Source of the DNA: a virus
IMG/VR virus record: IMGVR_UViG_3300009370_001603
Location: 58,519-122,518 of that record
Strand: one strand, 5' to 3'
DNA: 64,000 bases
In this document: in pieces, positions 7,201-64,000 of the stretch
Layout: every line of letters starts with the position of its first letter
Position numbering within the stretch: position 1 is the stretch's first letter
Notes under the pieces: generated by a model
Seen by the model: the letters and a program-made list of their open reading frames with translations, nothing else
What the model was told of the DNA's origin: nothing
Databases searched by the model: none
Translations under genes and position numbers: made by a program

Positions 7201-10200
7201 CTTTGTCTGCCCTCCAGTATTCTGGTGGATTGAACAAGCCGCTTCCCTGCGGTAGTTACTTTATCAAAGAGTCCAGCCTGTTTTGTTTGAAGATTGGATA
7301 ACTTCCTTTGTGAACCCGCCAGCTTGTTGTTGGCAGAATCGCTCTTCCTCTTCGTCCTGTCTAACTTAACATCACTCGCCTTCACCTTTTCATTTGCTTG
7401 GACTAACTTGCTGGCAGTGGTTATCCTCGTTTTCGTGGCTTTATCAATCCGAGCATCACTCTTTGCGAATGCAGCCGCAAGGTCTTTATTGGCACCCTGA
7501 ACATCTTTTACTTTTTTATTAGCTTTTGTTAACTCTTTAGTCGCGCCCCTCTGGACTTGCTTTGATTTCCTTAGAGCTTTAGCTGCATCAACCGTCTTTT
7601 TCTTTTGGTCTGCGGTGGCCTTTGAATTTTTATTCCTTGCATTCTTTAGTTCGTGCTCTCTCTGTTCAAGCTTATTGATTGACGCCTCGGTTTTTTTGCG
7701 TTCATCGGACCCCTTCTCTTGGGTCATGGCCTTTTTCTCTAAGTTTTGCCTGTTCTCCTTATGCCCCGCTAGATCTTTATCTATCTTCGCATTCTTCTTC
7801 GCTTCGCTTGCTTCCGCACCTTCAAGCAAGTTCTTTTCTTTGTTGAGCTTGCCTTGGTCTTTTCTCACTTGCTCGTCCGCCGCCGTTTTGTCGAGTCCTG
7901 CTCGTGCTGATTCGCCCGATGCCGCCATACTCTCTTTGTCAGTGTTTATTTGTTGTTCTTTGAGTGATTCCCTCTCGGCGTGAGCCGATTTTTGTTCAGC
8001 CGCCGCCGCATTATCATCAGTCTGTGCGGTTATTCGCTCATTGTGCGCATCTTGATTCATTTCCCGTTCTACATCGAGATCTTTTTTCTTCTGATCGGCG
8101 TTGGCTTGCTTACCAGCGACCTCCTCTTTTTGAGTGTCAATAGCCGTCTGCCCCGCCGACTCTGCTTCTTGAGCAGCTTTAAACTCTTCTTTGGAAGCCG
8201 CCTGTTGATTCTCTGCTCTTTCAAGTTTTTTCTGCTCTTTAGCTTCTTTTGCCGCACCTTCCTTCAGCTTTGCGTCTTGTTCTGCTTCAGCTTGCGCTTT
8301 GGCTGATTGGGAAGGCTTCTGCTCTTCAGCATCCACCTTGGCGTCCTTCTTGGCTTCTCCCGCATCCTTCTTGTCTTCTGCCGCCTCCTTCTTGGTTTCG
8401 CCATCTTCCGATCCACCCTCTTCCTTCCCTTTTCCTGCTGCTATCTCCCGACCTTTCTCTATACCCTTCATCGTCAGCATGAACACCACTCCAGCCGACA
8501 TTAGTAGTTGACTGGCTTTTTCACCAGCAACGGCCATTGCGAATTGTGAGTCAGTAGCTTCTTTAGACTTATCTCCTAAGTTCTGGAGAGCGGTCGATGC
8601 CGCTCCAGCAATAATTGAGAGATTCATCAGGCCCATACCGCCGCCGCCGCCGACACCCCCGCCTCCTGCGAACTTCTGAATACCAACTGCGCCACCGGCG
8701 TTAAATCCAGTAACGCCTCTTTTGTTCATTCGGTTAAGACTCGCGTAACCAATGCGTTGGGCAGATTTTTTATTAACTACAAATTCGCCCGGAGTAAGAA
8801 GGGCGGGTACGGTGTCTCTACCAGATATGCCACCACCGCCAGCTTTCTTTTTGGGTGAGGCCAAGCCACTAGCGTAGAATTCATCGGCAATTTGATTCGC
8901 AACTTTGGTCCTAAAGTTAGCCTTGCTCGCTTCTTTATAGCTAGTCTTGGCGTCAACCCAAGATCCGGGGAGGCCAGAGAAGTTATCAGCTAGGGCGCCG
9001 CCAATACCGCCGGGGAAATCAAATGGAGAGCTAACTTGATCTGCTCTAAATTTACCCTTACCATCTAAAACAGAAACCGCCGCCTCAAACGCATTGCCCA
9101 TTGGTGCTCCGCGTTTTGCCATGTGGCCAATAAACTCTTGCTTAGAAGCGTCGTCTAATTTTTGAGCACCTATACCAAGGTCTGCACCAAGTGCCGCCGT
9201 AGCATGATCTAATCCCACAGCCATTCCATCGAGAATGTTTTTCTTAAAGCTATCAGAAGTTTTCTTGTTTAATCCTTTTCTGGTGAGTGAGTATTTTCTA
9301 CCATTGAAGAATTGACTGAGGTTCTTTTGTGCTAACTTGTCTGCTTTTAATCTTCTATTGTTCTTAACGTTTGCTTGACTAATATTTCCAAGATCTACCT
9401 TGCTCTTCTCTGGCTCGTCTGGATCTAAGATGGCGGCACCGACCCTTGTGGTGCCAACAATACCGCCAGCAGCAAATTTCCCAATTCTGAGTCTACCCTT
9501 TTTATCGAGGGCTTTAGCTAGTACCTTGTCTTTGCCTGCTGCTTTTTTCGACGCGGCAGTTAACTGAACAGGTGTTATGTCTTGGTATAGCCACGCTTGA
9601 CCTAAATCAAATTTATTGGCCGCGTCAGTTAGTCTAGCTTCGGTCAGCTTGGGCACAACTTTTCTGTCGATACTACTCATGGGGCTGAGAGCCGCCCCGA
9701 TCATCTTATCGCCAATGTTCTTTTCTAGATCTCTTGCTGATTGTTTCTCATAACTCTTGATTTCTACCAGTTTGTTGCCATCCATAGCATCCATTCTTGA
9801 GCTACCACCGGCGGTTTTTGCTATACCGAGGGAATTCAGCAAACCTTCAAATGCTAAACCTCTTGCTTGGTGTTTCCTATTAGCGGCTAGCTTTTGGTAT
9901 TTATTGAATTTCGCCGTCAGGCCTTTGTCTGCCTCTATTCTCTTTTTGTACTGATTAAGATTAATGCCTCTTTTCTGTAGGTCTAGCGAGAATGAATCGT
10001 CTTCATTGAATCTGGTGGCTCCGGAACCTCTGACTGGGGCCGTGTTGAATTTCTTGCCTTTACCTTTATAGAAGGTTTCATCTTCATATTTTACATAGCC
10101 CTTTGAAGAGGGAAAACTAGAAACCTGTCCACCAGCAGCATATTTGTTCATGCCTGCAAGCCGTCCAGCACCAAGCTTTCTAACGCTACTCTTGCGTATT

Positions 10201-12937: not shown

Positions 12938-13984
12938 CTATCTCCTAAATTTATTTTTGTATTGTTCATTAGACATCTGTCTTAGTTCCAGCTGTTTATC
13001 TTGAAGGTACTGGTCCTGAATTTCTCCTCCCGCAGCCTTGACTTGGGCTATCCTCTGCTTTTTGAGTATTTGCATGTGCAGCGAGTTTGCATCATTGATT
13101 CTTTCTGCTTCTTCTGCGCTATCCGTAAAAATGTAAACTTCTTCTGAGTTTGTTATTTTCTCGTTATTTGTCATGTTCGCAACCTCCGACTGAAGCTTCT
13201 CTTTTTCCTGTTTCTTCCTTTGAATAATAAACCATCCGTCTAGCAAATCGTCATCATCTATGACTTCATCTCCGGGACACTCCATTGATTCTTGGGCATT
13301 ATCATACATTCTAGACCAGATACAAATATTCCTCTGGTCAAAAGATAGCTCTTGTTTTGAAGAGTTTTGGAACAAATCTTGGCCGGTCTCATCCTTCATT
13401 AACCAGATTGACCTCCAAGGTTCATTTCTCGCTAACTCCCGTATTTCTCCCTCTTTAAAGTAACTAGTAGTTAATAGTGAAAAGATCCTATTGGCATCTA
13501 TCGTGGAAAAATCGCAAAGTTCATTGCCTAGATAGGTGCATCTTTTAACATGCTCCAAACACCTCTTTATAAAAGCAATTCCCTCGCATGTATTCTCATA
13601 GTGCGAATCTCTTTTGGCCGACTCTTCTTTTAACGCCTTCTCAGTAGCCCTTAAGTAGGCTCTGGCGGTTTCCCTGACGTTATGTTTGTATCTATTTTCA
13701 AACATCTGGATTTTTAATTTGTCTATATTATCTTCCAGATCCTTTATCTTTTTGTCGCCCTCCTCTGTCCATAGTTCTTTTTCATACATCCATTCTAGCA
13801 TCTCGTCCTGAGTCATCAGGTCTTGCTGATAAGCCTCATTGTATGCATCCATAAACGTTTGATTTATATAAAACTCATCTTCTATATTTGGTGTGACTAC
13901 TTTGAGCTTAATATTGTCATAGTCAATGATATAAATGCCAGACCTTAGTCTAGAAACAAAATACTCCCGCTCATGGTGCTTCAT
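12938..13984 (-). CDS. Hypothetical protein, possible tail assembly chaperone
   Basis: 348 aa, charged and helical. First gene after the tail tube. Confidence 0.55.
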   Translation of the reverse strand: MKHHEREYFVSRLRSGIYIIDYDNIKLKVVTPNIEDEFYINQTFMDAYNEAYQQDLMTQDEMLEWMYEKELWTEEGDKKIKDLEDNIDKLKIQMFENRYKHNVRETARAYLRATEKALKEESAKRDSHYENTCEGIAFIKRCLEHVKRCTYLGNELCDFSTIDANRIFSLLTTSYFKEGEIRELARNEPWRSIWLMKDETGQDLFQNSSKQELSFDQRNICIWSRMYDNAQESMECPGDEVIDDDDLLDGWFIIQRKKQEKEKLQSEVANMTNNEKITNSEEVYIFTDSAEEAERINDANSLHMQILKKQRIAQVKAAGGEIQDQYLQDKQLELRQMSNEQYKNKFRR

Positions 13985-55981: not shown

Positions 55982-56123
55982 TCTTTATGATTTCCTCTAT
56001 TGGTTTATCCTCTTCCTGCAACTCTGCCTCCACCTCCGCATTGAGGGCAGCGGTAGCTTTACACTCCAGTTCGGTTTCAGCCGTTACATCACAGCTTTCG
56101 TTCTTACAGCACTTCTTTGTCAT
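55962..56123 (-). CDS. 53-aa acidic protein (MTKKCCKNESCDV...)
   Basis: Hand-translated; AAGGAG RBS; first gene of the late arm. Confidence 0.6.
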   Translation of the reverse strand: MTKKCCKNESCDVTAETELECKATAALNAEVEAELQEEDKPIEEIIKNAQDTE

Positions 56124-56149
56124 GATATTCTCCTTTTCTAGGACACTAT

Positions 56150-56158
56150 ATAATACAC
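56150..56158 (-). promoter_or_regulatory. Late promoter motif variant GTGTATTAT
   Basis: 27 bp upstream of ATG 56123. Confidence 0.5.
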
Positions 56159-56219
56159 GGGTGGCACATTTTTTCCAAAAAGGAATTTGAAGTTTTTACG
56201 AAAACAGCTATAATAACAA

Positions 56220-56560
56220 AGACCAATGGTTGAAAAGTGGTCAAATTCAGCAAATATTTGTATAAATCCGTAAAATGGGGCTGTGGTATCGAGTCCAAGT
56301 CCATCTGAATAATAAGTTACTTGAGAGTTTCCAAGAACTCCAAGGCTAGGCAAAAATTGAATCTAGGCACTGTCCCACCATGACAACCTAGTCCTGTGAA
56401 GGCCCTTTAGGGCGAAGTTGCAATAATCGAATTTAAGCATTGAAGACCTAGCTGCTTATTAATCCAACCTAGTACCTGTTGTATTCTTCACAGGTATAAA
56501 TGGTCTTGGTGCGTCTATTGGGCGCTTAGAATCAAGTGGGGGCGATCTAATAATTACATA
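56220..56560 (+). ncRNA. Candidate large structured non-coding RNA
   Basis: TTGAAG-16-TATAAT at 56187-56214, no credible ORF, about 8 stems (see findings), U-tract at ~56563. Confidence 0.4.
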
Positions 56561-56701
56561 CTCTTTTTTATTAGTGAAGTTTAGCTAAGACAACCGTAGA
56601 GTGTGCGGCCAGTTGTGCATGAACCACCCCAGCCTTTTTAGCAATACAAACACAAAAAAACCGTGAAAATAAAACCCCCGCACCCTTTTGGAACAGAAAT
56701 C

Positions 56702-56760
56702 GCTGCCCGAGTCGCCGTAAGTACTTACTATCAAACGACTTACAACTATTTAGAGAAAAA
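56702..56760. repeat. Palindromic module-boundary repeat R1
   Basis: GCTGCCC-N7-CGTAAGTACTT-ACTATCA-AACGACTTACA-ACTATTTAGAGAAAAA. Confidence 0.9.
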
Positions 56761-56772
56761 TTCTATTTTATT

Positions 56773-56813
56773 TAAAGAATAAGCTTGACAAGTGCCGATA
56801 ACTATAGTATAAT
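56773..56813 (+). promoter_or_regulatory. sigma70 promoter interleaved with sigma28-like promoter
   Basis: TTGACA(56785)-17-TATAAT; TAAAGAAT-13-GCCGATAA. Confidence 0.85.
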
Positions 56814-56855
56814 AAGAACATAACAAGTTAAGTAATTCACACAAGGAAAAAACAA

Positions 56856-56969
56856 ATGAGCGAAAGAATGATTGAGACAATTAAAGTAACATTGATTATC
56901 GGTTCTGGTATCATCGGCATTATTACGACGGCAATCGCTTGTTCATGGCTATTATTATCACAAATATAA
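56856..56969 (+). CDS. 37-aa single-TM micropeptide
   Basis: MSERMIETIKVTLIIGSGIIGIITTAIACSWLLLSQI; AAGGA RBS. Confidence 0.6.
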   Translation: MSERMIETIKVTLIIGSGIIGIITTAIACSWLLLSQI

Positions 56970-56990
56970 TCACATTTATTTAATAATAAT

Positions 56991-57031
56991 TAAAGATTAC
57001 CCTTGACAAATGACGATAATAATAGTATAAT
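56991..57031 (+). promoter_or_regulatory. sigma70 promoter interleaved with sigma28-like promoter
   Basis: TTGACA(57003)-17-TATAAT; TAAAGATT-13-GACGATAA. Confidence 0.85.
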
Positions 57032-57037
57032 AAGAAC

Positions 57038-57286
57038 ATGAAAAACAACAACAACAACAACGATAAGGCAAACCAAATGAATCAACCTAATGGCTATAAA
57101 TTCCGAGTATACAAGTTCAATAAAAACACTTACGACGCTTTTGCTACTTTTGTGACGCTTCAAGATGCGGTATCGTATATGAGGCGATGGAATCCTAATC
57201 AGATGCATAACTGGTACATCCTAGACGAAGACACTAGCCGAAGATTTGAAATGAATCCTACTGGTGATGCACTCCGGCTAGTCTAA
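57038..57286 (+). CDS. Hypothetical early protein (probably leaderless)
   Basis: 82 aa; ATG follows TATAAT after 6 nt. Confidence 0.65.
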   Translation: MKNNNNNNDKANQMNQPNGYKFRVYKFNKNTYDAFATFVTLQDAVSYMRRWNPNQMHNWYILDEDTSRRFEMNPTGDALRLV

Positions 57287-57316
57287 AAAAAACTTGAGAA
57301 AATCCCCGTTTAGGGC

Positions 57317-57345
57317 TTGACAACACCGACAATTTATGGTATAAT
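57317..57345 (+). promoter_or_regulatory. sigma70 promoter with extended -10
   Basis: TTGACA-17-TATAAT with TGG before -10. Confidence 0.85.
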
Positions 57346-57382
57346 TAGGATATAAGAAATTAACACAACACAAAGGAAAATT

Positions 57383-57628
57383 ATGAGAGTTTCAGATTTA
57401 CAACCAGCGGCTTACCCGCAATCACCTTCAGTAGAGAATCCTAATTGTGATTCTCACCGATTGTTTACTAACGAGTTCAACAAAGCCAGCTTTATCGAAG
57501 CTAATGGCGACGTTGAAGTTGTTTGGAACGAACAGTATAAATACTGGGCGGTTCCCGCTTTCGCTGAACAGCGTAAGCGTTATAGTGACCTGAAACAGGC
57601 GTACTGTGACCAGTACGGTTGTGAATAG
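57383..57628 (+). CDS. Hypothetical early protein
   Basis: 81 aa; ACACAACACAAAGGA leader. Confidence 0.8.
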   Translation: MRVSDLQPAAYPQSPSVENPNCDSHRLFTNEFNKASFIEANGDVEVVWNEQYKYWAVPAFAEQRKRYSDLKQAYCDQYGCE

Positions 57629-57692
57629 GGTTTAACCCGCAAGCCTTGCCCTAGTCGCAAGCATAGCCAGCTGTGAGGCTATTCAAGATACC
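57628..57692 (+). ncRNA. Structured RNA element A1 (second copy at 60210-60270)
   Basis: Three hairpins; covarying third stem. Confidence 0.55.
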
Positions 57693-57721
57693 AGCATTTT
57701 TATTTTAACAAAGGAAAGATA

Positions 57722-58069
57722 ATGAGAAAAGCACACAATCCACGAATCACATGTAAAGACGGTTTCACTATGTCAGTACAGGCACGAGATAGCGCATACT
57801 GTACGCCAAGAGAAGATTATCCCGATACGCCATACACTAAAGTAGAATGTGGCTATCCGTCATCTACACCCAAAACAGATGGGCTAAGAGCTTACGCAGA
57901 GCTGTTCGGTACTCAGGATTACACTGAAACCGTTTACGGATACGTGCCGGTTGAGATAGTACAGGCAGAGCTTGACGCACATGGTGGTATAGTTGAAGGG
58001 TGTATGCCGTCCAACGAACCAACCAAGGAAGTACTTGCCGACATCTACTTCAATGATTACTCTGAGTGA
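57722..58069 (+). CDS. Hypothetical early protein
   Basis: 115 aa (ITCKDGFTMSVQA..YCTPR..VECGYPS..VYGYVP..HGG); AAAGGA RBS. Confidence 0.85.
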   Translation: MRKAHNPRITCKDGFTMSVQARDSAYCTPREDYPDTPYTKVECGYPSSTPKTDGLRAYAELFGTQDYTETVYGYVPVEIVQAELDAHGGIVEGCMPSNEPTKEVLADIYFNDYSE

Positions 58070-58133
58070 GCCTGTCTTAACTAACCCAGACAGCTAAGGG
58101 GCGCAGGGTGCCTGTACACAGGTAGGCCGAGGC

Positions 58134-58190
58134 GCTGCCCCGCGCGACGTAAGTCCTTTGGTAGTAACGACTTACGACGATTCAGAGAAA
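58134..58190. repeat. Palindromic module-boundary repeat R2
   Basis: GCTGCCC-N7-CGTAAGTCCTT-TGGTAGT-AACGACTTACG-ACGATTCAGAGAAA. Confidence 0.92.
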
Positions 58191-58214
58191 AACCTTCTTT
58201 TTATCTTTTTTTAT

Positions 58215-58255
58215 TAATGTTTGGGGTTGATTTATGCCGATATATATTATATAAG
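58215..58255 (+). promoter_or_regulatory. Degenerate sigma70 promoter interleaved with sigma28-like promoter
   Basis: TTGATT-17-TATAAG; TAATGTTT-13-GCCGATAT. Confidence 0.6.
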
Positions 58256-58281
58256 AGTTAATCACAACAAAGGAGATAAGT

Positions 58282-58368
58282 ATGATATATTTACTAACGG
58301 CGGCTTGCATTATCGGCATTATTGGGGCTGATACTTTTAATAAATTTATTCTAAAAAATCTAGAATAG
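58282..58368 (+). CDS. 28-aa hydrophobic micropeptide
   Basis: MIYLLTAACIIGIIGADTFNKFILKNLE; AAAGGAG RBS. Confidence 0.55.
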   Translation: MIYLLTAACIIGIIGADTFNKFILKNLE

Positions 58369-58371
58369 GGG

Positions 58372-58400
58372 TTGACAAACCTAACTTTTTATGGTATAAT
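58372..58400 (+). promoter_or_regulatory. sigma70 promoter with extended -10
   Basis: TTGACA-17-TATAAT with TGG before -10. Confidence 0.85.
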
Positions 58401-58406
58401 ACAATT

Positions 58407-58568
58407 ATGAAAAACACAACAAACAAAGTCTTTAAGCTAATCATAACCGGAAAGCTATCGCCAAATAGCAAGGCTTACAAAAAAACGATAGCGAACTCGC
58501 AAGGTATGCTGACCGGCAAGCCCGACATATATACAACAGTAACCAAGCTGGTCGACAAAAAAACTTAA
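58407..58568 (+). CDS. 53-aa basic protein (probably leaderless)
   Basis: MKNTTNKVFKLIITGKLSP...; ATG follows TATAAT after 6 nt. Confidence 0.6.
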   Translation: MKNTTNKVFKLIITGKLSPNSKAYKKTIANSQGMLTGKPDIYTTVTKLVDKKT

Positions 58569-58587
58569 AAAAATCCCAAAATAGGGC

Positions 58588-58616
58588 TTGACAAAACTAA
58601 GTTTTTATGGTATAAT
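58588..58616 (+). promoter_or_regulatory. sigma70 promoter with extended -10
   Basis: TTGACA-17-TATAAT; only a 3-codon ORF follows. Confidence 0.85.
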
Positions 58617-58621
58617 GTAAA

Positions 58622-58825
58622 CATAACGAAAGGGAAATACAATCCAATGAACAACTAAAACGGTGGCCCTGCTGGGCGATAGAGTCAAAAACCGTGACAC
58701 GAAGAACTGATGCCGAACAGTATAACACCGACACGAGAAGTCTAACTGCGTAAACAATGACACGAGAAGCCGAACTGCGTTAACAACGGCACTTGAAGCC
58801 TAACAAGTAAACAATGGCGGGGCAA
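58622..58825 (+). ncRNA. Candidate sRNA with four tandem hairpins
   Basis: Own promoter; 28-29-nt tandem units with loops ATGCCGAA, AAGTCTAA, AAGCCGAA, AAGCCTAA. Confidence 0.6.
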
Positions 58826-58842
58826 AAAACTTTGGAAAAAAC

Positions 58843-58882
58843 TAAAGATTCCACTTGACAACGCCGATAATTACTATATAAT
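58843..58882 (+). promoter_or_regulatory. sigma70 promoter interleaved with sigma28-like promoter
   Basis: TTGACA(58855)-16-TATAAT; TAAAGATT-12-GCCGATAA. Confidence 0.85.
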
Positions 58883-58919
58883 AAGAGTATTACAAGCAAC
58901 ACTTTTGAAAGGTTTTACT

Positions 58920-59204
58920 ATGAGCGAATTCAGCAAATTTGACACCCAAATCCACATCGAAGAAACCAACGAATATCAGCCAACGGCGGCTGATTTGGCA
59001 GAGCTTAACGAATGGCTCGATGAGATGGAAGGCGATATGCCTTTCCCAGAGGAAGAAGAATTCCAACTGTCTGCCCCCGAAGGATGGGACGCTATCGAGG
59101 GAGATGATTCGCTTGGCGAATTGTCAACGTTCGACGGTATTGAAATTGATTACGAGCCGGAAGACAGTTTTTATGATTACGCCGATTTAATGGAGAATTT
59201 TTAA
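58920..59204 (+). CDS. Highly acidic early protein
   Basis: MSEFSKFDTQIHIEE...; GAAAGG RBS; very D/E-rich. Confidence 0.8.
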   Translation: MSEFSKFDTQIHIEETNEYQPTAADLAELNEWLDEMEGDMPFPEEEEFQLSAPEGWDAIEGDDSLGELSTFDGIEIDYEPEDSFYDYADLMENF

Positions 59205-59299
59205 TGGTAGATTTTGAAATGTGGAATTGGATTATTGGCGTTTCCATTACGGTAACGATTTTATCTTGCCTTTATCTGGATTGGGATTTGTCTCGATGA
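59204..59299 (+). CDS. 31-aa single-TM micropeptide
   Basis: MVDFEMWNWIIGVSITVTILSCLYLDWDLSR; TAATG and ATGA coupling on both sides. Confidence 0.65.
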   Translation: MVDFEMWNWIIGVSITVTILSCLYLDWDLSR

Positions 59300-59442
59300 G
59301 CGATGAGCACTACCAACAACCCGAAGACGATGGAGCTTTGTTGTTTTGGATGCACTGCGAAGAGCTTGCCAACCAACCGGAGCAAACGGAAGAACCTGAC
59401 CCCGATGAGCCAATTGGATTCGACGACCCGCCACCCTTTTAG
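59296..59442 (+). CDS. 48-aa acidic protein ending DDPPPF
   Basis: MSDEHYQQPEDD...; ATGA overlap with the upstream peptide. Confidence 0.65.
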   Translation: MSDEHYQQPEDDGALLFWMHCEELANQPEQTEEPDPDEPIGFDDPPPF

Positions 59443-59453
59443 GGGGTCGCGGG

Positions 59454-59510
59454 GCTGCCCCGCAGGCCGTAAGTCCTTTGACAGCAACGACTTATGACTA
59501 TTTAGAGAAA
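59454..59510. repeat. Palindromic module-boundary repeat R3
   Basis: GCTGCCC-N7-CGTAAGTCCTT-TGACAGC-AACGACTTATG-ACTATTTAGAGAAA. Confidence 0.92.
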
Positions 59511-59536
59511 ACTTTCTAAAAATTCCTAAATTACTC

Positions 59537-59573
59537 TTGACAGGCTAAAGATATTGTGGTATAATGTCGATAT
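59537..59573 (+). promoter_or_regulatory. sigma70 promoter with downstream-shifted sigma28-like promoter
   Basis: TTGACA-17-TATAAT; TAAAGATA(59546)-12-GTCGATAT. Confidence 0.8.
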
Positions 59574-59594
59574 AAGTAATAAGGAAACAAAGTT

Positions 59595-59729
59595 ATGACA
59601 ATTCAAAGACTAATGACAATTTTAAGCTATGGACAAATCCCGGCAAAACCTGCTAACATTACCGCAGTACGCTGGAATGCCATGATTAAAATGGCTAAAA
59701 AAACTTTGGAAAAAGTTGAGAATAATTAA
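59595..59729 (+). CDS. 44-aa hypothetical protein
   Basis: MTIQRLMTILSYGQIP...; AAGGA RBS. Confidence 0.6.
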   Translation: MTIQRLMTILSYGQIPAKPANITAVRWNAMIKMAKKTLEKVENN

Positions 59730-59767
59730 AGATTAGGCTTGACAAATGCCGATAAATATAGTATACT
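59727..59767 (+). promoter_or_regulatory. sigma70 promoter interleaved with sigma28-like promoter
   Basis: TTGACA(59739)-17-TATACT; TAAAGATT-13-GCCGATAA. Confidence 0.85.
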
Positions 59768-59805
59768 TAAGACATAAGAAGTTAACACAACACAAAGGAA
59801 AGAAA

Positions 59806-60114
59806 ATGAAAACTACCGAAACAAACATCTTGAACGTAACATACGACACCGCCGACGGGTTGCACCGCATCTTGATTGACAAGCTGGTTGAGTACGACTA
59901 TAATGGCGATATGGCAGTAGCCAAAAAAATGTGTACTGTTATCACTCCCGATAACGTTCCAATGATATTCAACGTGTCGCCATACACACCGTTGAGCGAT
60001 ATGCATACTATGGTTAAGGTATGGATTGATTGCGGTTGCCCAATGGATTGCGACAAATATGGAATTGCCCGCAAGTGGGATAAAATAAGTCTTCACAAGT
60101 GGGTAGCGGGATAA
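59806..60114 (+). CDS. Hypothetical early protein
   Basis: 102 aa from MKTTETN; ACACAACACAAAGGA leader. Confidence 0.8.
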   Translation: MKTTETNILNVTYDTADGLHRILIDKLVEYDYNGDMAVAKKMCTVITPDNVPMIFNVSPYTPLSDMHTMVKVWIDCGCPMDCDKYGIARKWDKISLHKWVAG

Positions 60115-60120
60115 CACGAA

Positions 60121-60198
60121 GGGAACTGGAACTCACCCGCCCGTCTTGAGGCGTAGAATATCAAGCTAGTGAGTTAGGGTTAAGAGCCACTGCATCCC
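60121..60198 (+). ncRNA. Structured RNA element B1 (second copy at 62910-62952)
   Basis: GGGA-ACTGGA-stem-TAGGGTTAAGAGCCACTGC-A-TCCC. Confidence 0.55.
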
Positions 60199-60209
60199 AC
60201 GGCTACAAA

Positions 60210-60270
60210 GGGTTGAAACCCGCAAGTCTTGCCCAAGTCGCAAGCATAGTTTACGGAACTATTCAAAACC
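60210..60270 (+). ncRNA. Structured RNA element A2
   Basis: Homologous to 57628-57692 with compensatory changes. Confidence 0.55.
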
Positions 60271-60356
60271 GTTTTCATACAACGGGTGGGAGTGTCTTTC
60301 CTTATCCAAACGGATAAAGACGAGATGACATAGCCAGCCAGCGAAACCGACGCGGC

Positions 60357-60413
60357 GCTGCCCCGCAGGCCGTAAGTCCTTTGGTGGCAACGAGTTACGG
60401 CGATTTATAAAAA
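60357..60413. repeat. Palindromic module-boundary repeat R4
   Basis: GCTGCCC-N7-CGTAAGTCCTT-TGGTGGC-AACGAGTTACG-GCGATTTATAAAAA. Confidence 0.92.
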
Positions 60414-60511
60414 ACTTTATCTTTTTTTGAAAAAAGTAGTTGACAATGACCTAACGTGTCACACCTATGGGCGATAATATATATATAAGAAGTTAACACG
60501 AAAGGAAAGTT

Positions 60512-60619
60512 ATGTTTGGTTTATCAGATGAGTTTATGATGTTTGTTGTTGTCCCGGCACTACTGTTGCCGGTTGGTTGGGTTGTCACAAAAATATTAAA
60601 AATTTATGATAATAATTAA
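60512..60619 (+). CDS. 35-aa single-TM micropeptide
   Basis: MFGLSDEFMMFVVVPALLLPVGWVVTKILKIYDNN; ACACGAAAGGA leader. Confidence 0.65.
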   Translation: MFGLSDEFMMFVVVPALLLPVGWVVTKILKIYDNN

Positions 60620-60657
60620 AGTTTGGGCTTGACAACAGCCGATAAATAGTATATAAT
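60617..60657 (+). promoter_or_regulatory. sigma70 promoter interleaved with sigma28-like promoter
   Basis: TTGACA(60629)-17-TATAAT; TAAAGTTT-13-GCCGATAA. Confidence 0.88.
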
Positions 60658-60682
60658 AAGCACATAACACGAAAGGAAAATT

Positions 60683-60871
60683 ATGAGTTATTACCCGAAA
60701 GAAATCGCAAGTAAAATGAAAAAAGGTTTAGAAAATGAATTACAGCAAATCTGTGAAATCGGTAAGGTTTTACGTGAAGATGGAAATTCGAGAATCGAAG
60801 TAAACTACTACATGAACGTAGATGAGGATTTTATCTCTGACGTTCTTGGTTGTTACAATTATAAAGGTTGA
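60683..60871 (+). CDS. Hypothetical early protein
   Basis: 62 aa; ACACGAAAGGA leader. Confidence 0.8.
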   Translation: MSYYPKEIASKMKKGLENELQQICEIGKVLREDGNSRIEVNYYMNVDEDFISDVLGCYNYKG

Positions 60872-60875
60872 GAAA

Positions 60876-61085
60876 ATGAGAGAATTTGAAATTGAAGCCG
60901 CAAAGCGAAGACTCACCGGCATGGTATTGGTTCGATTCCGTGAAGGGTTGCGTTATCACGTTGGTATATCGGACATTGTGACACTGGCAAACAATCGGGT
61001 GCGAGTCGCTACCAAGAGATGCCACCAGAGAGAAATTGTGTCGATTACCAGCGACCCAGAAATATATGCAAAAAAAGTAAAATAG
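60876..61085 (+). CDS. Hypothetical basic protein
   Basis: 69 aa from MREFEIE; AAAGG RBS. Confidence 0.7.
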   Translation: MREFEIEAAKRRLTGMVLVRFREGLRYHVGISDIVTLANNRVRVATKRCHQREIVSITSDPEIYAKKVK

Positions 61086-61088
61086 GGC

Positions 61089-61117
61089 TTGACAAGTACC
61101 AATTATTATGGTACAAT
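61089..61117 (+). promoter_or_regulatory. sigma70 promoter with extended -10
   Basis: TTGACA-17-TACAAT with TGG before -10. Confidence 0.8.
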
Positions 61118-61154
61118 TAAGACATACAACACAACAACTTTGAAAGGTTAAATT

Positions 61155-61550
61155 ATGAAAACTGTTGAACAAATGCTCGCTGAACTTGAAGTCGCCGTGA
61201 ATGAGTGCATCGTCATTCCTAACGAATGGTTGCCGGAAGGATACCACGACCAAACACGGGGCGGTCGCACGCTCGCAAGGTTAAATGAAATGTGCGACGA
61301 AAAACAGGACGAAGAATCCGAACACCAAAAGGTAAAAGCGTTGAAGGCTCGCAATATCGAAAAGCTACAAAAGCAAGTAGAAGAAAAATCCTTATTTGCT
61401 TCTCACGGCGATTTTGTTGACCTTGATAGCGAACTTGATTACAGCGACAATGAAGCCGACGAAATCCAACTACATAAAAATATGATGGCGTTGGTTGGCG
61501 GTATGGTAAACAGTGGCATGATTGATGCGGAAGATTTGGAGGAAGAATAA
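61155..61550 (+). CDS. Hypothetical acidic early protein
   Basis: 131 aa; GAAAGG RBS. Confidence 0.85.
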   Translation: MKTVEQMLAELEVAVNECIVIPNEWLPEGYHDQTRGGRTLARLNEMCDEKQDEESEHQKVKALKARNIEKLQKQVEEKSLFASHGDFVDLDSELDYSDNEADEIQLHKNMMALVGGMVNSGMIDAEDLEEE

Positions 61551-61816
61551 TGTTTTCAGAAAAAGATTACGATTACGGCGATGGTCTTCTGCACAGGTGG
61601 GGAATTTGCCTAGTACGGCAAAGCACGGGTAGTGTACTCAATATGGGTTTGCCCCGCGTGTTGAATGAAATGTTAAACTTGGTTACGTTCAACGATTTGC
61701 CTACAGAAGATGTTTTTGAAGCTATTGCTAAATGGGCAAATGTCGATTTTCCATCGTGGGAACCGGCGGGACTAATGCCCCAATATCAGAATGATGGGAG
61801 TAACGCAAATGGATAA
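61550..61816 (+). CDS. Hypothetical protein
   Basis: 88 aa; TAATG coupling, GGAGG RBS. Confidence 0.8.
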   Translation: MFSEKDYDYGDGLLHRWGICLVRQSTGSVLNMGLPRVLNEMLNLVTFNDLPTEDVFEAIAKWANVDFPSWEPAGLMPQYQNDGSNANG

Positions 61817-61910
61817 GTTTGATATTTTAATGTATGCCGTATGTATTGGAACAATTGTAGCCAGTGCTGTATTTGGAACATGGGCGTTATTTATGACAAT
61901 GAGTTTATAG
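61809..61910 (+). CDS. 33-aa single-TM micropeptide
   Basis: MDKFDILMYAVCIGTIVASAVFGTWALFMTMSL; GGGAG RBS. Confidence 0.6.
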   Translation: MDKFDILMYAVCIGTIVASAVFGTWALFMTMSL

Positions 61911-61916
61911 GGGTTT

Positions 61917-62009
61917 ATGATGAATAGCAAAGAACAAAGACGAAACATTTATATTTGCCTAGCGGCAATGATTGCCGGTTTTATTTTGCAAGGGATACTT
62001 GTTCCATGA
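61917..62009 (+). CDS. 30-aa single-TM micropeptide
   Basis: MMNSKEQRRNIYICLAAMIAGFILQGILVP. Confidence 0.55.
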   Translation: MMNSKEQRRNIYICLAAMIAGFILQGILVP

Positions 62010-62084
62010 TGAGAAAACAACACGCGATAGAAATCGCACGTTATTACCAACGACTAGAAAATATTGAAAAAAGGAAAAAAGAAG

Positions 62085-62183
62085 ATGAGAGACAGAGACA
62101 GACTAAAGTCAATTTTATTCTTCGCGGTTTCCGCCGCTTGGGTTTCTTTCGCCGTAACGATAATGAGCCACTATAGCAGGTAA
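62085..62183 (+). CDS. 32-aa single-TM micropeptide (overlaps alternative basic ORF 62006..62176)
   Basis: MRDRDRLKSILFFAVSAAWVSFAVTIMSHYSR; AAAGGA RBS. Confidence 0.5.
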   Translation: MRDRDRLKSILFFAVSAAWVSFAVTIMSHYSR

Positions 62184-62190
62184 AAACGGG

Positions 62191-62248
62191 GCTGCCCGCC
62201 GCGACGTAAACCCTTACAGTTAAAGCACTTACGACTATTTTGAGAAAA
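62191..62248. repeat. Palindromic module-boundary repeat R5
   Basis: GCTGCCC-N7-CGTAAACCCTT-ACAGTTA-AAGCACTTACG-ACTATTTTGAGAAAA. Confidence 0.9.
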
Positions 62249-62260
62249 TTTCAGAAAAGT

Positions 62261-62301
62261 TAAAGTTTACCCCTTGATTTTGACGATAATAATAGTATAA
62301 T
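62261..62301 (+). promoter_or_regulatory. sigma70 promoter interleaved with sigma28-like promoter
   Basis: TTGATT-16-TATAAT; TAAAGTTT-13-GACGATAA. Confidence 0.75.
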
Positions 62302-62307
62302 GAGAGA

Positions 62308-62394
62308 GTAAGATAGGCACGCAGTTAGCCAAGCAATAAGTCCCCTCTGGTGCAAGGGCTGTCAGTCAAGCAGTAAGTCGGCGCCCTGTCTTAC
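62308..62394 (+). ncRNA. Candidate pseudo-symmetric sRNA
   Basis: Starts at predicted +1; 10-bp closing stem GTAAGATAGG/CCTGTCTTAC; internal 19-nt direct repeat; no ORF. Confidence 0.55.
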
Positions 62395-62456
62395 CTAATA
62401 CAAGCAAGTTAAGCGAATATAGCACAGCCAGCCAGCAAAAAAAATCGAAAATAAAT

Positions 62457-62497
62457 TAAAGTTTACCCCTTGACAATGCCGATATATAAGGTATAAT
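62457..62497 (+). promoter_or_regulatory. sigma70 promoter interleaved with sigma28-like promoter
   Basis: TTGACA(62470)-16-TATAAT; TAAAGTTT-13-GCCGATAT. Confidence 0.85.
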
Positions 62498-62503
62498 GAG
62501 AAC

Positions 62504-62653
62504 ATGACAGAACAACGATTTACAAGCATGGCACAACAAAGACGATTTGAGGCACAACACAATGAAATCCAAAAAGCAAGAGAAGCCAAAGCAAAGAATT
62601 TGGATGCCCAAGACGAGGGCAGTAACGATGGAGGATCGTCGGACGAAGCGTAA
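62504..62653 (+). CDS. 49-aa protein (probably leaderless)
   Basis: MTEQRFTSMAQQRRFEAQ...; ATG follows TATAAT after 6 nt. Confidence 0.5.
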   Translation: MTEQRFTSMAQQRRFEAQHNEIQKAREAKAKNLDAQDEGSNDGGSSDEA

Positions 62654-62699
62654 GCGTACACGCCAAGCACAGCGTAGTGCGTGGCAAAATTCTATTTAA
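62562..62699 (+). CDS. 45-aa very basic peptide (overlapping frame)
   Basis: MKSKKQEKPKQRIWMPKTRAVTMEDRRTKRKRTRQAQRSAWQNSI; GAGG RBS. Confidence 0.55.
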   Translation: MKSKKQEKPKQRIWMPKTRAVTMEDRRTKRKRTRQAQRSAWQNSI

Positions 62700-62714
62700 G
62701 CGAAAGGTAATGCA

Positions 62715-62867
62715 ATGAGCGTTAAATTTATCAAAGACAAAGAAACTAAAACTAAAATCCGCTACACAGCAACCGGCGATGTGTCTGGGTCAATTTATAT
62801 TGACAAGGAAAGCGAACTTGCAAAAGAATCCGAAATTATTTTGGAAATTCCTCAAGTTACCGCTTGA
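62715..62867 (+). CDS. 50-aa hypothetical protein
   Basis: MSVKFIKDKETKTKIRY...; GAAAGG RBS. Confidence 0.7.
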   Translation: MSVKFIKDKETKTKIRYTATGDVSGSIYIDKESELAKESEIILEIPQVTA

Positions 62868-62891
62868 CATTGCCGATAAATATAGTATAAT
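62852..62891 (+). promoter_or_regulatory. sigma70 promoter interleaved with sigma28-like promoter
   Basis: TTGACA(62864)-16-TATAAT; TCAAGTTA-12-GCCGATAA. Confidence 0.85.
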
Positions 62892-62909
62892 GGTAGTATA
62901 ACACGAAAA

Positions 62910-62952
62910 GGCATCTGGAGCAACGTGCTAGGGTTAAGAGCCACTGCTTGCC
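62910..62952 (+). ncRNA. Structured RNA element B2 in 5' leader of 62978
   Basis: GGCA-TCTGGA-GCAACGTGC-TAGGGTTAAGAGCCACTGC-T-TGCC. Confidence 0.55.
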
Positions 62953-62977
62953 GCACACATTTTTGAAAGGTTTTGAT

Positions 62978-63178
62978 ATGAAAATCAAACAAACAGTTGA
63001 TACCAAGTATGATAATTTGTACATTGGTTGGAACAATCTTCAGTTCACCGACATTGCCGGTAACGAGGTCAAAATTGATGTCACCGACAATCAAATTTTG
63101 GAAATAGCCGAAATCATTAACACAAAGCGTGATTCGATTTTGGAAGAACGAGCAGAAAAGGAAATCGAAGTTGAGTAA
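62978..63178 (+). CDS. Hypothetical protein
   Basis: 66 aa from MKIKQTV; GAAAGG RBS. Confidence 0.8.
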   Translation: MKIKQTVDTKYDNLYIGWNNLQFTDIAGNEVKIDVTDNQILEIAEIINTKRDSILEERAEKEIEVE

Positions 63179-63347
63179 TGCACAAAAGCCGCTTGTAGGA
63201 ATCGGCACAATTTTTCCTGCTGGAAAGGTCGTCGCCATAAAGAACGACCACGTATTGTTAGAGACTCCCAACGAGGGTGTCAAGAGTTTTACTTTTTCTC
63301 AAGTCGAAAGGTTTATCAATGTTGAACGAACTTTATCACAAGCGTAA
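63171..63347 (+). CDS. Hypothetical protein (TTG start)
   Basis: 58 aa; AAAGGA upstream of TTG. Confidence 0.6.
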   Translation: MSNAQKPLVGIGTIFPAGKVVAIKNDHVLLETPNEGVKSFTFSQVERFINVERTLSQA

Positions 63348-63522
63348 CGAACGCAAAGTTAATTTCCTTTACCCAGTAAACGGAAGCAAGAACGTCTTGC
63401 GAAATGTTGACGGGGTTAAGGTCAAGAGTTTCACCGGCCCAAGTGGTCGTGGAATCACCGTCAAAGAGAGCAATGGCTTACACAAGTCATTCTCACTGAC
63501 CAAGTGCGTGGCTTCACTCTAA
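63319..63522 (+). CDS. Hypothetical basic protein
   Basis: 67 aa from MLNELYHK; GAAAGG RBS. Confidence 0.7.
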   Translation: MLNELYHKRNERKVNFLYPVNGSKNVLRNVDGVKVKSFTGPSGRGITVKESNGLHKSFSLTKCVASL

Positions 63523-63530
63523 ACTAAGCC

Positions 63531-63650
63531 AACCTTTCGTGTTGTGTGAGAGGTTGGGGACTAGCTCGCAATCAAGTGAACTTAGTCCATAGCTCAGAGG
63601 TTGCCGCTATAAGCAGGCTTTGGACTGTCCCCCACTCTCTCTACACGAAT
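63531..63650 (+). ncRNA. Candidate structured sRNA with anti-leader 5' segment
   Basis: Long stem TTCGTGT/ACACGAA, GAGAG/CTCTC, GGGGAC/GTCCCC enclosing AGTCCA/TGGACT. Confidence 0.55.
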
Positions 63651-63663
63651 TGAATACAAAATA

Positions 63664-63728
63664 CGACCCACGCTCGGGGCCTTTCGGTTATGCCGTTTTA
63701 TCAATCGCAGCGTGTGGTTGTTTTTTTT
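63664..63728 (+). terminator. Terminator-like stem plus U-tract
   Basis: CGACCCACGCT...AGCGTGTGGTTG followed by T8; the large internal loop is atypical. Confidence 0.5.
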
Positions 63729-63751
63729 ATTTTAGGGGTTGACAAATCGGG

Positions 63752-63808
63752 GCTGCCCCGCAGGTCATAAGTCCTTTGTTTCTGGTGGTTTACGTCAATT
63801 TAGAAAAA
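63752..63808. repeat. Palindromic module-boundary repeat R6 (degenerate)
   Basis: GCTGCCC-N7-CATAAGTCCTT-TGTTTCT-GGTGGTTTACG-TCAATTTAGAAAAA. Confidence 0.85.
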
Positions 63809-63822
63809 AAACCAGAAAAAGT

Positions 63823-63863
63823 TAAAGTTACCCCATTGACTTTGACGATATATATAGTATAAT
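63823..63863 (+). promoter_or_regulatory. sigma70 promoter interleaved with sigma28-like promoter
   Basis: TTGACT-16-TATAAT; TAAAGTTA-13-GACGATAT. Confidence 0.8.
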
Positions 63864-63898
63864 CAAAGAGTAACATATTAACACGAAGGGAAGAAAAG

Positions 63899-64000
63899 AT
63901 GCCAGCACACAACGTAAACACAGCCGCACTCGACCAAGTAGTTGAAGCGGCACGACGATTTGAAGCACTAAGCGATGCCCTTAACCTAGCACCAGTTGAC
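63899..64000 (+). CDS. Hypothetical protein, truncated by window end
   Basis: MPAHNVNTAALDQVVEAARRFEALSD...; ACACGAAGGG leader. Confidence 0.65.
   Translation, partial: MPAHNVNTAALDQVVEAARRFEALSDALNLAPVD

Follow-up and report, generated by a model that had tools for sequence, protein, structure and literature searches.

The final 64 kb of the IMG/VR virus record IMGVR_UViG_3300009370_001603 contain six copies of a short element built around a 29-bp inverted repeat (IR; the dyad), located upstream of promoter regions in what is predicted to be an early region. These 64,000 nucleotides are referred to as the window. The record that was searched is linear, comprises 122,518 bp and is an estimated ~73% complete, and its end cuts off the early region of the window. 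We propose that the dyad belongs to a polar, helically phased double-dyad element, putatively protein-binding, that is found upstream of a subset of early promoters and whose repetition also permits the shuffling of modules; we put the chances of this proposal at about even. A preliminary description of the sequence had read the copies as an array for cassette exchange and had listed operators for a dimeric regulator as an alternative, and it is this alternative that the sequence evidence favors.

Six Co-oriented Elements Share One Anatomy

All six elements are located on the + strand and have the anatomy GCTGCCC-N7-(11-7-11 inverted repeat)-N3-ATTTAGAGAAAA, with an internal spacing that is invariant in six of six copies (Table 1). 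The skeleton of the IR reads C-N-TAA-N4-TT-N7-AA-N4-TTA-N-G. Orientation, positions, internal spacing, the distances between successive copies (1432, 1320, 903, 1834, and 1561 bp) and the six differing 7-bp centers are as first described. The arms had been called conserved, which they are less uniformly than this implies: the stem of copy 5 contains three mismatched positions and that of copy 6 several G-T pairs. At ≤3 mismatches the consensus IR recovers 4/6 window sites, with 0.00 expected (100 shuffles), and the degenerate copies 5 and 6 were located via the GCTGCCC anchor. A motif scan of the 122,518-bp record returned the six known copies alone, with no seventh elsewhere, and a control pattern likewise gave 0.

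The first element (E1) is found at the divergent junction of the late and early arms, and orthologous copies were aligned in the relatives L075, L022, L060, and L015. That each site lies just after the end of a gene or RNA does not hold for this copy, as the late arm is on the - strand and no + strand gene comes before it. At the same divergence point, ahead of E1, a GA(A/T)AAAACCCCC(A)CCC box and a GAACCACCC box (56640–56700) were observed, both of which are conserved in every one of the four relatives aligned.

A Family of Solo and Paired Dyads

The IR pattern is present in at least 120 IMG/VR stretches. Relaxed copies were found among 127 loci examined, with at least one in 114, at least two in 76, at least three in 50 and a maximum of 10 per locus; a count over 132 loci gave 620 repeats, 361 of them paired and 259 solo. 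An earlier pattern, GCTGCCC-N7-CGTAAGT, matched 110 stretches, mostly as chance single matches, and the full element occurs at 13 loci only. Most relatives carry a larger symmetric element, in which two 29-bp dyads surround a GC-rich palindromic core with a start-to-start spacing of 53 bp (110 cases), 52 bp (36), 50 bp (24), or 51 bp (9), or approximately five helical turns. The window and its nearest relatives (L022, L060, and L075) retain only the right part of this core and the promoter-proximal dyad, and solo and paired forms interconvert among close relatives.

Five complete genomes contain 12, 17, 18, 6, and 9 skeleton sites (control pattern 0–1), and all 62 sites sit in one block of ~7.5–20 kb per genome. 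Four of these genomes encode a TerL that is 53–54% identical to that of the window, and there the block and TerL are ~6–10 kb apart, as they are in the window. The fifth also carries the dyad, and as its TerL is only 25% identical to that of the window, the element appears to cross phage lineages. The best matches of the window TerL among cultured phages are 25–28% identical (Microcystis phage MaeS and Bacillus siphophages), and neither megablast of positions 56000–64000 nor blastn of the paired element of L153 gave a match in the cultured-phage collection. A string search for a published description of the dyad, with four motif pieces and with supplementary files outside its reach, gave only primer and aptamer papers.

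The Dyad Is Conserved as Sequence, Not as a Helix

The elements are located between transcription units and on the transcribed strand, the region has few canonical intrinsic terminators (the sole one adjoining an element precedes E6), and copies 2 and 3 fold into a predicted hairpin. This would suit an RNA element in the + strand early transcripts, with GC and dyad hairpins serving as a terminator, an RNase III-like processing site or an antitermination site, an explanation to which we give little credence. Among 76 promoter-oriented dyads, 81.1% of the stem cells are paired; shuffling the 3' letters gives 82.3%, and 498/500 shuffles equal or exceed the observed share. Compensatory changes are seen in 4 cells where 10.2 would be expected, and one position of the stem is kept unpaired in 56/76. 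For 543 unique dyads, the variable positions show Watson-Crick pairing of 0.46, 0.60, 0.62, and 0.40, where 0.52, 0.65, 0.63, and 0.45 are expected. The half-site AAACCC stands opposite the standard AAGTCC 177 times, and its pairing with itself is absent from the eight commonest combinations. On the sense strand of 75 oriented dyads, A-C/C-A mismatches (13) outnumber G-U/U-G wobbles (4).

Predicted folds are weak as well, with z-scores of 0.45, -0.41, -3.04, -0.85, -0.56, and -1.84 for copies 1–6, so that four of the six are without a significant fold. No U-tract was seen after the dyad in the window copies, and 0/8 terminator-like sites in 56000–64000 lie at a dyad, one of them preceding E6. 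Two placements also argue against an RNA element: E1 comes before any + strand promoter, and E6 has a real terminator ahead of it. Rfam gave no match at the gathering threshold over the window as a whole, nor at E-values up to 1 over 56500–64000.

Across the 76 sites the TAA and TTA are invariant and the C, TT and AA nearly so, with a TAA-TTA distance of 22 bp, or approximately two turns. Based on the absence of covariation, the mismatch pattern and the weak folds, we consider the arms to be conserved as sequence and not as a helix. Invariant TAA and TTA without conservation of the helix is, as far as sequence can tell, the signature of a dyad read on double-stranded DNA. An N4-like hairpin promoter was considered for the GGGGCTGCCCC part of the element and dropped, as copy 1 is without the hairpin and the loop size varies in relatives.

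Polarity and Helical Phasing Toward Promoters

The dyad is polar with respect to the promoter, as an asymmetric arm position is C/C in 44 and G/G in 5 of the 76 promoter-oriented sites. The gap from the dyad to the -35 box peaks at 28–29, 39–40, and 49–50 nt, and the distal dyad peaks at +52/53. Over 122 gaps the resultant of the 10.5-bp periodicity is 0.53, a value that none of 5000 random draws reached (null mean 0.096, null maximum 0.339). The three gap classes comprise 31, 32, and 21 cases from 16, 21, and 13 loci, and spacer sequences within each class are diverse. This difference in sequence and locus argues against shared descent as the whole explanation, for sites that are not independent of one another.

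The gaps in the window share this quantization, five being 40–41 nt and one, that of E2, being 50 nt and therefore one helical turn longer than the rest. Those of E1, E3, E5, and E6 derive from the coordinates of the promoter search and those of E2 and E4 were counted by hand. A -35 box some 40–50 bp downstream of each site had been noted from the start, and this stands for all six copies, with the reservation that the -35 box of copy 4 has no consensus -10 box at normal spacing.

The elements could instead be architectural or topological sites for a gyrase-like, nucleoid-type or genome-entry factor, punctuating the transcribed block every 0.9–1.8 kb and relieving supercoiling, organizing loops or pacing DNA entry. 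A regular spacing (~1–1.8 kb across one block, in six genomes), the location of the elements at unit boundaries amid very strong co-directional promoters, and a paired geometry that puts both dyads on the same helix face would all fit such sites. The strict conservation of sequence and the phasing toward the -35 box point to a promoter-specific partner instead, and no candidate protein was found; we regard this explanation as unlikely.

Promoters and Neighboring Features

The + strand of the region contains 14 promoters that score at least 11/12, and the element is present at 6 promoter regions only. Each interval between sites had been thought to form a self-expressing module; the sites do mark module boundaries, and the intervals hold several further strong promoters in addition. 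The layout of the promoter after E4 is conserved in L022 (~8840), L060, L015 (~8560), L106, and L034, and in its sequence it looks like a separately regulated orthologous promoter.

Table 1. Elements and adjoining promoters in the window (elements start at GCTGCCC; dyad, 29-bp IR; gap, end of the IR to the -35 box).
Feature	Position	Strand	Description
E1	56702..56759	+	GCTGCCC, N7, dyad 56716-56744, ATTTAGAGAAAA; conserved GAAAATAAAACCCCCGCACCC precedes
Promoter after E1	56785..56813	+	consensus sigma70-type, 12/12 matches, gap 40 nt
E2	58134..58191	+	dyad 58148-58176; 0 mismatches to consensus
Promoter-like site after E2	58227..58255	+	TTGATT-N17-TATAAG, gap 50 nt; read by hand, absent from promoter-search list
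E3	59454..59511	+	dyad 59468-59496
Promoter after E3	59537..59565	+	consensus, gap 40 nt
E4	60357..60414	+	dyad 60371-60399
Atypical promoter region after E4	60440..60492	+	TTGACA, palindrome TGACCTAACGTGTCA, A/T-rich -10-like stretch; gap 40 nt
E5	62191..62248	+	dyad 62205-62233; left half is the AAACCC variant
Promoter after E5	62274..62301	+	TTGATT-N16-TATAAT, 10/12, gap 40 nt
E6	63752..63809	+	dyad 63766-63794; most degenerate copy; canonical intrinsic terminator 63702-63720 precedes
Promoter after E6	63836..63863	+	TTGACT-N16-TATAAT, 11/12, gap 41 nt

Within the E4 promoter, a conserved palindrome, TGACC(T/A)(A/G)ACGTGTCA, is located between the TTGAC box and the -10-like stretch, and the promoter is followed by a membrane-type open reading frame (ORF) of 35 amino acids (60512–60619) with 70–87% identity in three relatives. 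Many promoters between 56770 and 63870 are alike beyond their hexamers (TAAAG...cccTTGACAa.gCCGATAa.tataGTATAAT), and a sigma28-like TAAAG/GCCGATA pair with a spacer of ~13 nt is interleaved with them; the spacer of FliA promoters is 11 nt. A non-coding stretch of 40 nt (57627–57666) is 100% identical to positions 7305–7344 of L022, between flanks of only ~70–77% identity, and a diverged second copy precedes E4 (60205–60266). To judge by its sequence, this stretch may be a small structured RNA.

Recombination and Module Shuffling

DNA sites such as dif, loxP, the attP core and pdif consist of two inverted arms of ~11 bp around a spacer of 6–8 bp. The dyads have this geometry (11-7-11 in all six copies), as had been pointed out, and were taken to be core sites of a tyrosine recombinase at which gene cassettes are exchanged by crossover in the 7-bp center. 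Modules between the sites are indeed gained and lost. Moreover, 13/133 look-alike sites in bacteria are found no more than 14 nt from the 3' end of a tRNA, and 2/10 neighboring ORFs tested there are integrases. In spite of this we hold the exchange of cassettes by such a recombinase to be highly improbable. The domains Phage_integrase (PF00589) and Resolvase (PF00239) gave 0 matches in the 122.5-kb record, in line with the absence of a recombinase from the window noted at the outset, and in 0/5 complete IR-bearing genomes, with the Xer of the host outside this search; the positive controls for PF00589 matched in 14/14.

Classical tyrosine recombinases require matching overlap regions. The centers differ among all six window copies, and of 2292 pairs of dyads at the same locus only 97 have identical and 22 reverse-complement-identical centers. 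Recombination between co-oriented sites would also delete the genes between them, and the 10.5-bp phasing toward promoters has no role in such a system and points to transcription.

Breakpoints were expected within the 7-bp center if cassettes were exchanged there. Comparison of the genomes G003 and G002 gave 12 homology blocks, of which 4/24 ends are ≤10 nt from a dyad in each genome (1.3 expected, P ~ 0.03), a modest excess over chance that would favor the dyads as breakpoints. Three of the four near ends per genome are 2–10 nt outside the edge of the dyad, and the one inside a dyad is without a matching partner. The ends that coincide with dyads thus do so at their edges, and most ends (16 and 14 of 24) are >120 nt from any dyad.

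Gain, loss and relocation of modules beside the sites were all seen among relatives. In L022 and L060, the sequence to the left of E3 and that to the right of E4 meet at one element, which makes the module 59497–60356 an element-bounded indel. Where G003 has a single dyad, G002 has two with an additional module between them, and the window gene at 57383–57628 is located in a different module in L022. The positions of orthologous elements are kept among relatives.

At the level of reads, Logan contigs of four marine DNA runs from a single study were searched. The early region is present there in pieces of ~0.3–1.7 kb, apart from one contig of 4.3 kb (X2) that covers 60009–64000. Many alternative joints were found at dyad edges (for example 58174->60371, 58182->58643, 58183->62425, and 58184->59729) or at promoters (59765–59785 to several places). 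Their short sides measure only 20–41 nt, and metagenome joints that are short-sided or below 95 in likeness often stem from other organisms or repeats. Related strains or repeats are therefore the likelier source of these joints, which are no evidence for excised circles. The picture is one of homologous shuffling at repeated cassettes, not of site-specific exchange.

Related Dyads in Bacteria

A scan of one genome per species (596 Gb) returned at least 120 matches to the dyad, compared to ~70 by chance. Planctomycetota account for 36/80 among the matches listed, and some matches are phage contigs binned in metagenome-assembled genomes. In an even sample, the strict repeat (≤3 mismatches) occurs in 22/200 Planctomycetota genomes and an equally palindromic control in 3/200; the CGTAA...TTACG skeleton is found in 11/61 Planctomycetota genomes versus 2/61 for the control, so it is enriched and rare per genome. 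T-rich tails follow 16/118 host sites, and consensus promoters are likewise few. Among the 10 neighboring ORFs tested no common gene emerged, and 14 Planctomycetota loci matched no Rfam family but tRNA. This distribution of sequences suggests a Planctomycetota host for the phage and keeps an origin from mobile repeats alive; no host regulon was identified.

Several composite settings were observed. A conserved long palindromic locus of Pirellulales type, with the dyad at its apex, is present in six genomes (L255, L267, L279, L320, L332, and L346); its flanks pair beyond the dyad (CTCGAA...TTCGAG and CCTCTTCGT...ACGAAGAGG), and L255, L267, and L279 gave no match in Rfam. In a Latescibacterota genome (L264, L265, L271, L272, L309, L324, and L342) the dyad is followed by a long poly-C in a multi-copy repeat, and in a Thermoguttaceae genome (L240, L365, and L366) by poly-C with a promoter-like TTGACA...TAAACT site ~43 nt downstream. 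The genome G012 (L367–L382) has 31 skeleton dyads on many contigs (control 0), placed inside a nested palindrome, ...cttttgccattttt (dyad) ... aaaaatggcaaaag, and its locus L377 also holds the octamer GCGATCGC. On the phage contig L228 (~13700–13810) a paired element of the CGTAACTCGTTGATACTCAACGAGTTACG variant (13-3-13) is located 20 nt past an apparent tRNA 3' end, judged by eye, which mirrors the association of the bacterial dyad with tRNA 3' ends; in the window no tRNAs were found.

Such settings raise the possibility that the dyad is a selfish palindromic repeat, similar to repetitive extragenic palindromes (REPs) or miniature inverted-repeat transposable elements (MITEs), that multiplied in the early region, moved between phages and bacteria and has little regulatory role. 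Its passage across phage lineages, the interconversion of solo and paired forms between close relatives, the enrichment in Planctomycetota and the multi-copy composite palindromes, of which those of G012 and the dyad-plus-poly-C unit of the Latescibacterota genome and others are examples, are consistent with this. A repeat of this kind would not be expected to be confined as the phage copies are, which sit in one block in 5/5 complete genomes instead of being scattered between genes, with none in the record of the window outside 56702–63809. The copies are moreover polar and helically phased to promoters, keep orthologous positions in relatives, and are accompanied by no transposase or recombinase found in the record or the five complete genomes. 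We therefore rate a selfish repeat as unlikely, if not negligibly so.

Search for a Binding Protein and Arguments Against an Operator

Several findings weigh against the dyad as an operator of promoters. A Pfam search of 10 early ORFs gave nothing above threshold, the sub-threshold matches being the H-NS N-terminal domain (17.9 bits, cut-off 24.5) and DUF6174, and the genomes searched encode no HU/IHF (PF00216), HTH_3 (PF01381) or HTH_17 (PF12728) domain. Just 6 of ~17 strong promoters in the window bear the element and those that do look no weaker, so that a need for regulation is not evident. The instances come from related phages, and the three gap classes could partly reflect descent and not selection. 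Finally, the bacterial dyads are found in small repeated palindromic elements and beside tRNA 3' ends, settings that speak for a hairpin or a mobile repeat as origin more than for a phage operator.

The small basic product of 63319–63522 (67 amino acids), 64–93% identical in six relatives, is the most conserved of the small early proteins. It is confidently modeled as an SH3/Sm-like barrel with a predicted local distance difference test (pLDDT) value of 88.9; compared with the PDB, the model gave no match at E ≤ 0.001, the best, weak ones being WYL, Tudor and ribosomal barrels. The adjacent small basic ORF 63129–63347 has a VKSFT motif in common with it. The genome G000 and the distant dyad-bearing G004 have only ~12 proteins in common, including GMP reductase, primase, a split PolIII alpha, a glycosyltransferase, epimerases and TerL, with no evident regulator among them.

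Comparison With Known Systems

Integration host factor (IHF) sites upstream of lambda pL and ilvPG and the class I sites of CRP depend on the face of the helix. The element resembles them in that a dyad or bend site precedes a sigma70 promoter at distances separated by full helical turns, and the half-dyad (C/T)AA-N4-TTA presumably resembles the CAANNNNTTR core of the IHF consensus. It differs from them in that the promoters in the window are already near consensus and no phage HU/IHF gene was found.

REPs and bacterial interspersed mosaic elements, including the IHF-binding RIP, are imperfect palindromes, often paired round a central motif, at the 3' ends of transcription units. REPs occur in hundreds of copies throughout a genome and are specific to one species. 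The bacterial look-alikes of the dyad sit in composite repeats of this type, whereas the phage copies are confined to one block without genome-wide scatter and are tied to promoters. Unlike dif, lox and att sites, the dyads come with no recombinase gene, non-matching spacers, breakpoints outside the spacer and a phasing toward promoters. Integron arrays comprise an IntI integrase, promoterless cassettes, and attC sites that fold as single strands and have outer R boxes and extrahelical bases. The dyads differ from these attC sites as well, as PF00589 is absent, the modules have their own promoters and the helix shows no covariation; the R-box was judged by eye only.

Stoperators are asymmetric sites of ~13 bp at which the monomeric immunity repressor of temperate phages blocks elongation genome-wide. 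The element shares with the stoperators of cluster A mycobacteriophages (excerpt of PMC9283540) the many copies of one short conserved site, an orientation bias, the location at gene boundaries and one regulator, which is putative here. In contrast, the site in the window is a 29-bp dyad that stays within one block and in phase with promoters, and neither a repressor nor an integrase gene accompanies it.

The closest theme is that of the promoter-early stem-loop (PeSL) cassettes of T4-type phages, described in excerpts of two papers as repeated units of an early promoter and a stem-loop (PMC2839356; PMC4122927). PeSL cassettes, according to these excerpts, and the element described here both combine a repeated strong sigma70-type early promoter with a palindrome among small ORFan genes, and in both, relatives show indels and swaps at the units through homologous recombination between repeats. 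Here this is based on the module 59497–60356 (L022 and L060), the module that distinguishes G002 from G003, and unitig breaks at dyads and promoters in the four runs. The stem-loops of PeSL units are, in the same excerpts, GC-rich terminator hairpins that vary in sequence and lie inside or around the promoter. The dyad in the window, in contrast, is conserved in sequence without covariation, lies 28–50 bp upstream and in phase, is often doubled at 53 bp and is found across lineages; it has no U-tract, and its folds, which are predicted only, are weak. Nor does TerL, at 25–28% identity to its best cultured matches, place the window among T4-type myoviruses. The element is a new form of a promoter/palindrome cassette theme that is already known.

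Discussion

The 29-bp pseudo-palindrome CGTAAnnnnTT-N7-AAnnnnTTACG would be the site of a dimeric or tetrameric protein, and each copy in the window would represent that half of a conserved "double-dyad" control element which lies nearer to the promoter. Two dyads placed five helical turns apart around a GC-rich core suggest a dimer of dimers. The bound protein would occupy a fixed face of the helix upstream of some host-type early promoters, most often the leading one where a module has several, and could modulate these promoters or insulate neighboring modules from each other. Activation appears less likely than timed shut-off or insulation, given promoters that are close to consensus as they stand. 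The repeats of ~60–150 bp formed by element and promoter would at the same time be substrates for ordinary homologous recombination, by which modules are shuffled between related phages. Of the features of an operator, the element has dyad symmetry with sequence-conserved half-sites and a fixed helical phase. That the block is expressed early is, like the binding itself, something we infer from the sequence.

A bolder version, possible in our view though doubtful, is that the dyad is the operator of an unrecognized master regulator that times or insulates early modules in a large group of uncultured marine phages. These phages would have genomes of 150–240 kb and hosts that are probably Planctomycetota, and the control "code" would have moved between lineages whose terminases are only 25% identical. 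Since PF01381, PF12728, and PF00216 are not encoded, such a regulator may have a new fold, be delivered with the virion or be a hijacked host factor.

The integron-like reading, attractive as it is, is unsupported and is hereby corrected. Little can be read from the early regions of large uncultured phages, which consist mostly of tiny ORFans without known regulators. A phased dyad with 6–18 copies per genome, present in at least 120 viral contigs, marks the boundaries of modules in such regions and offers bait for finding the putative regulator. To the PeSL idea of promoter cassettes that drive gene shuffling, the element would add a second, sequence-specific layer.

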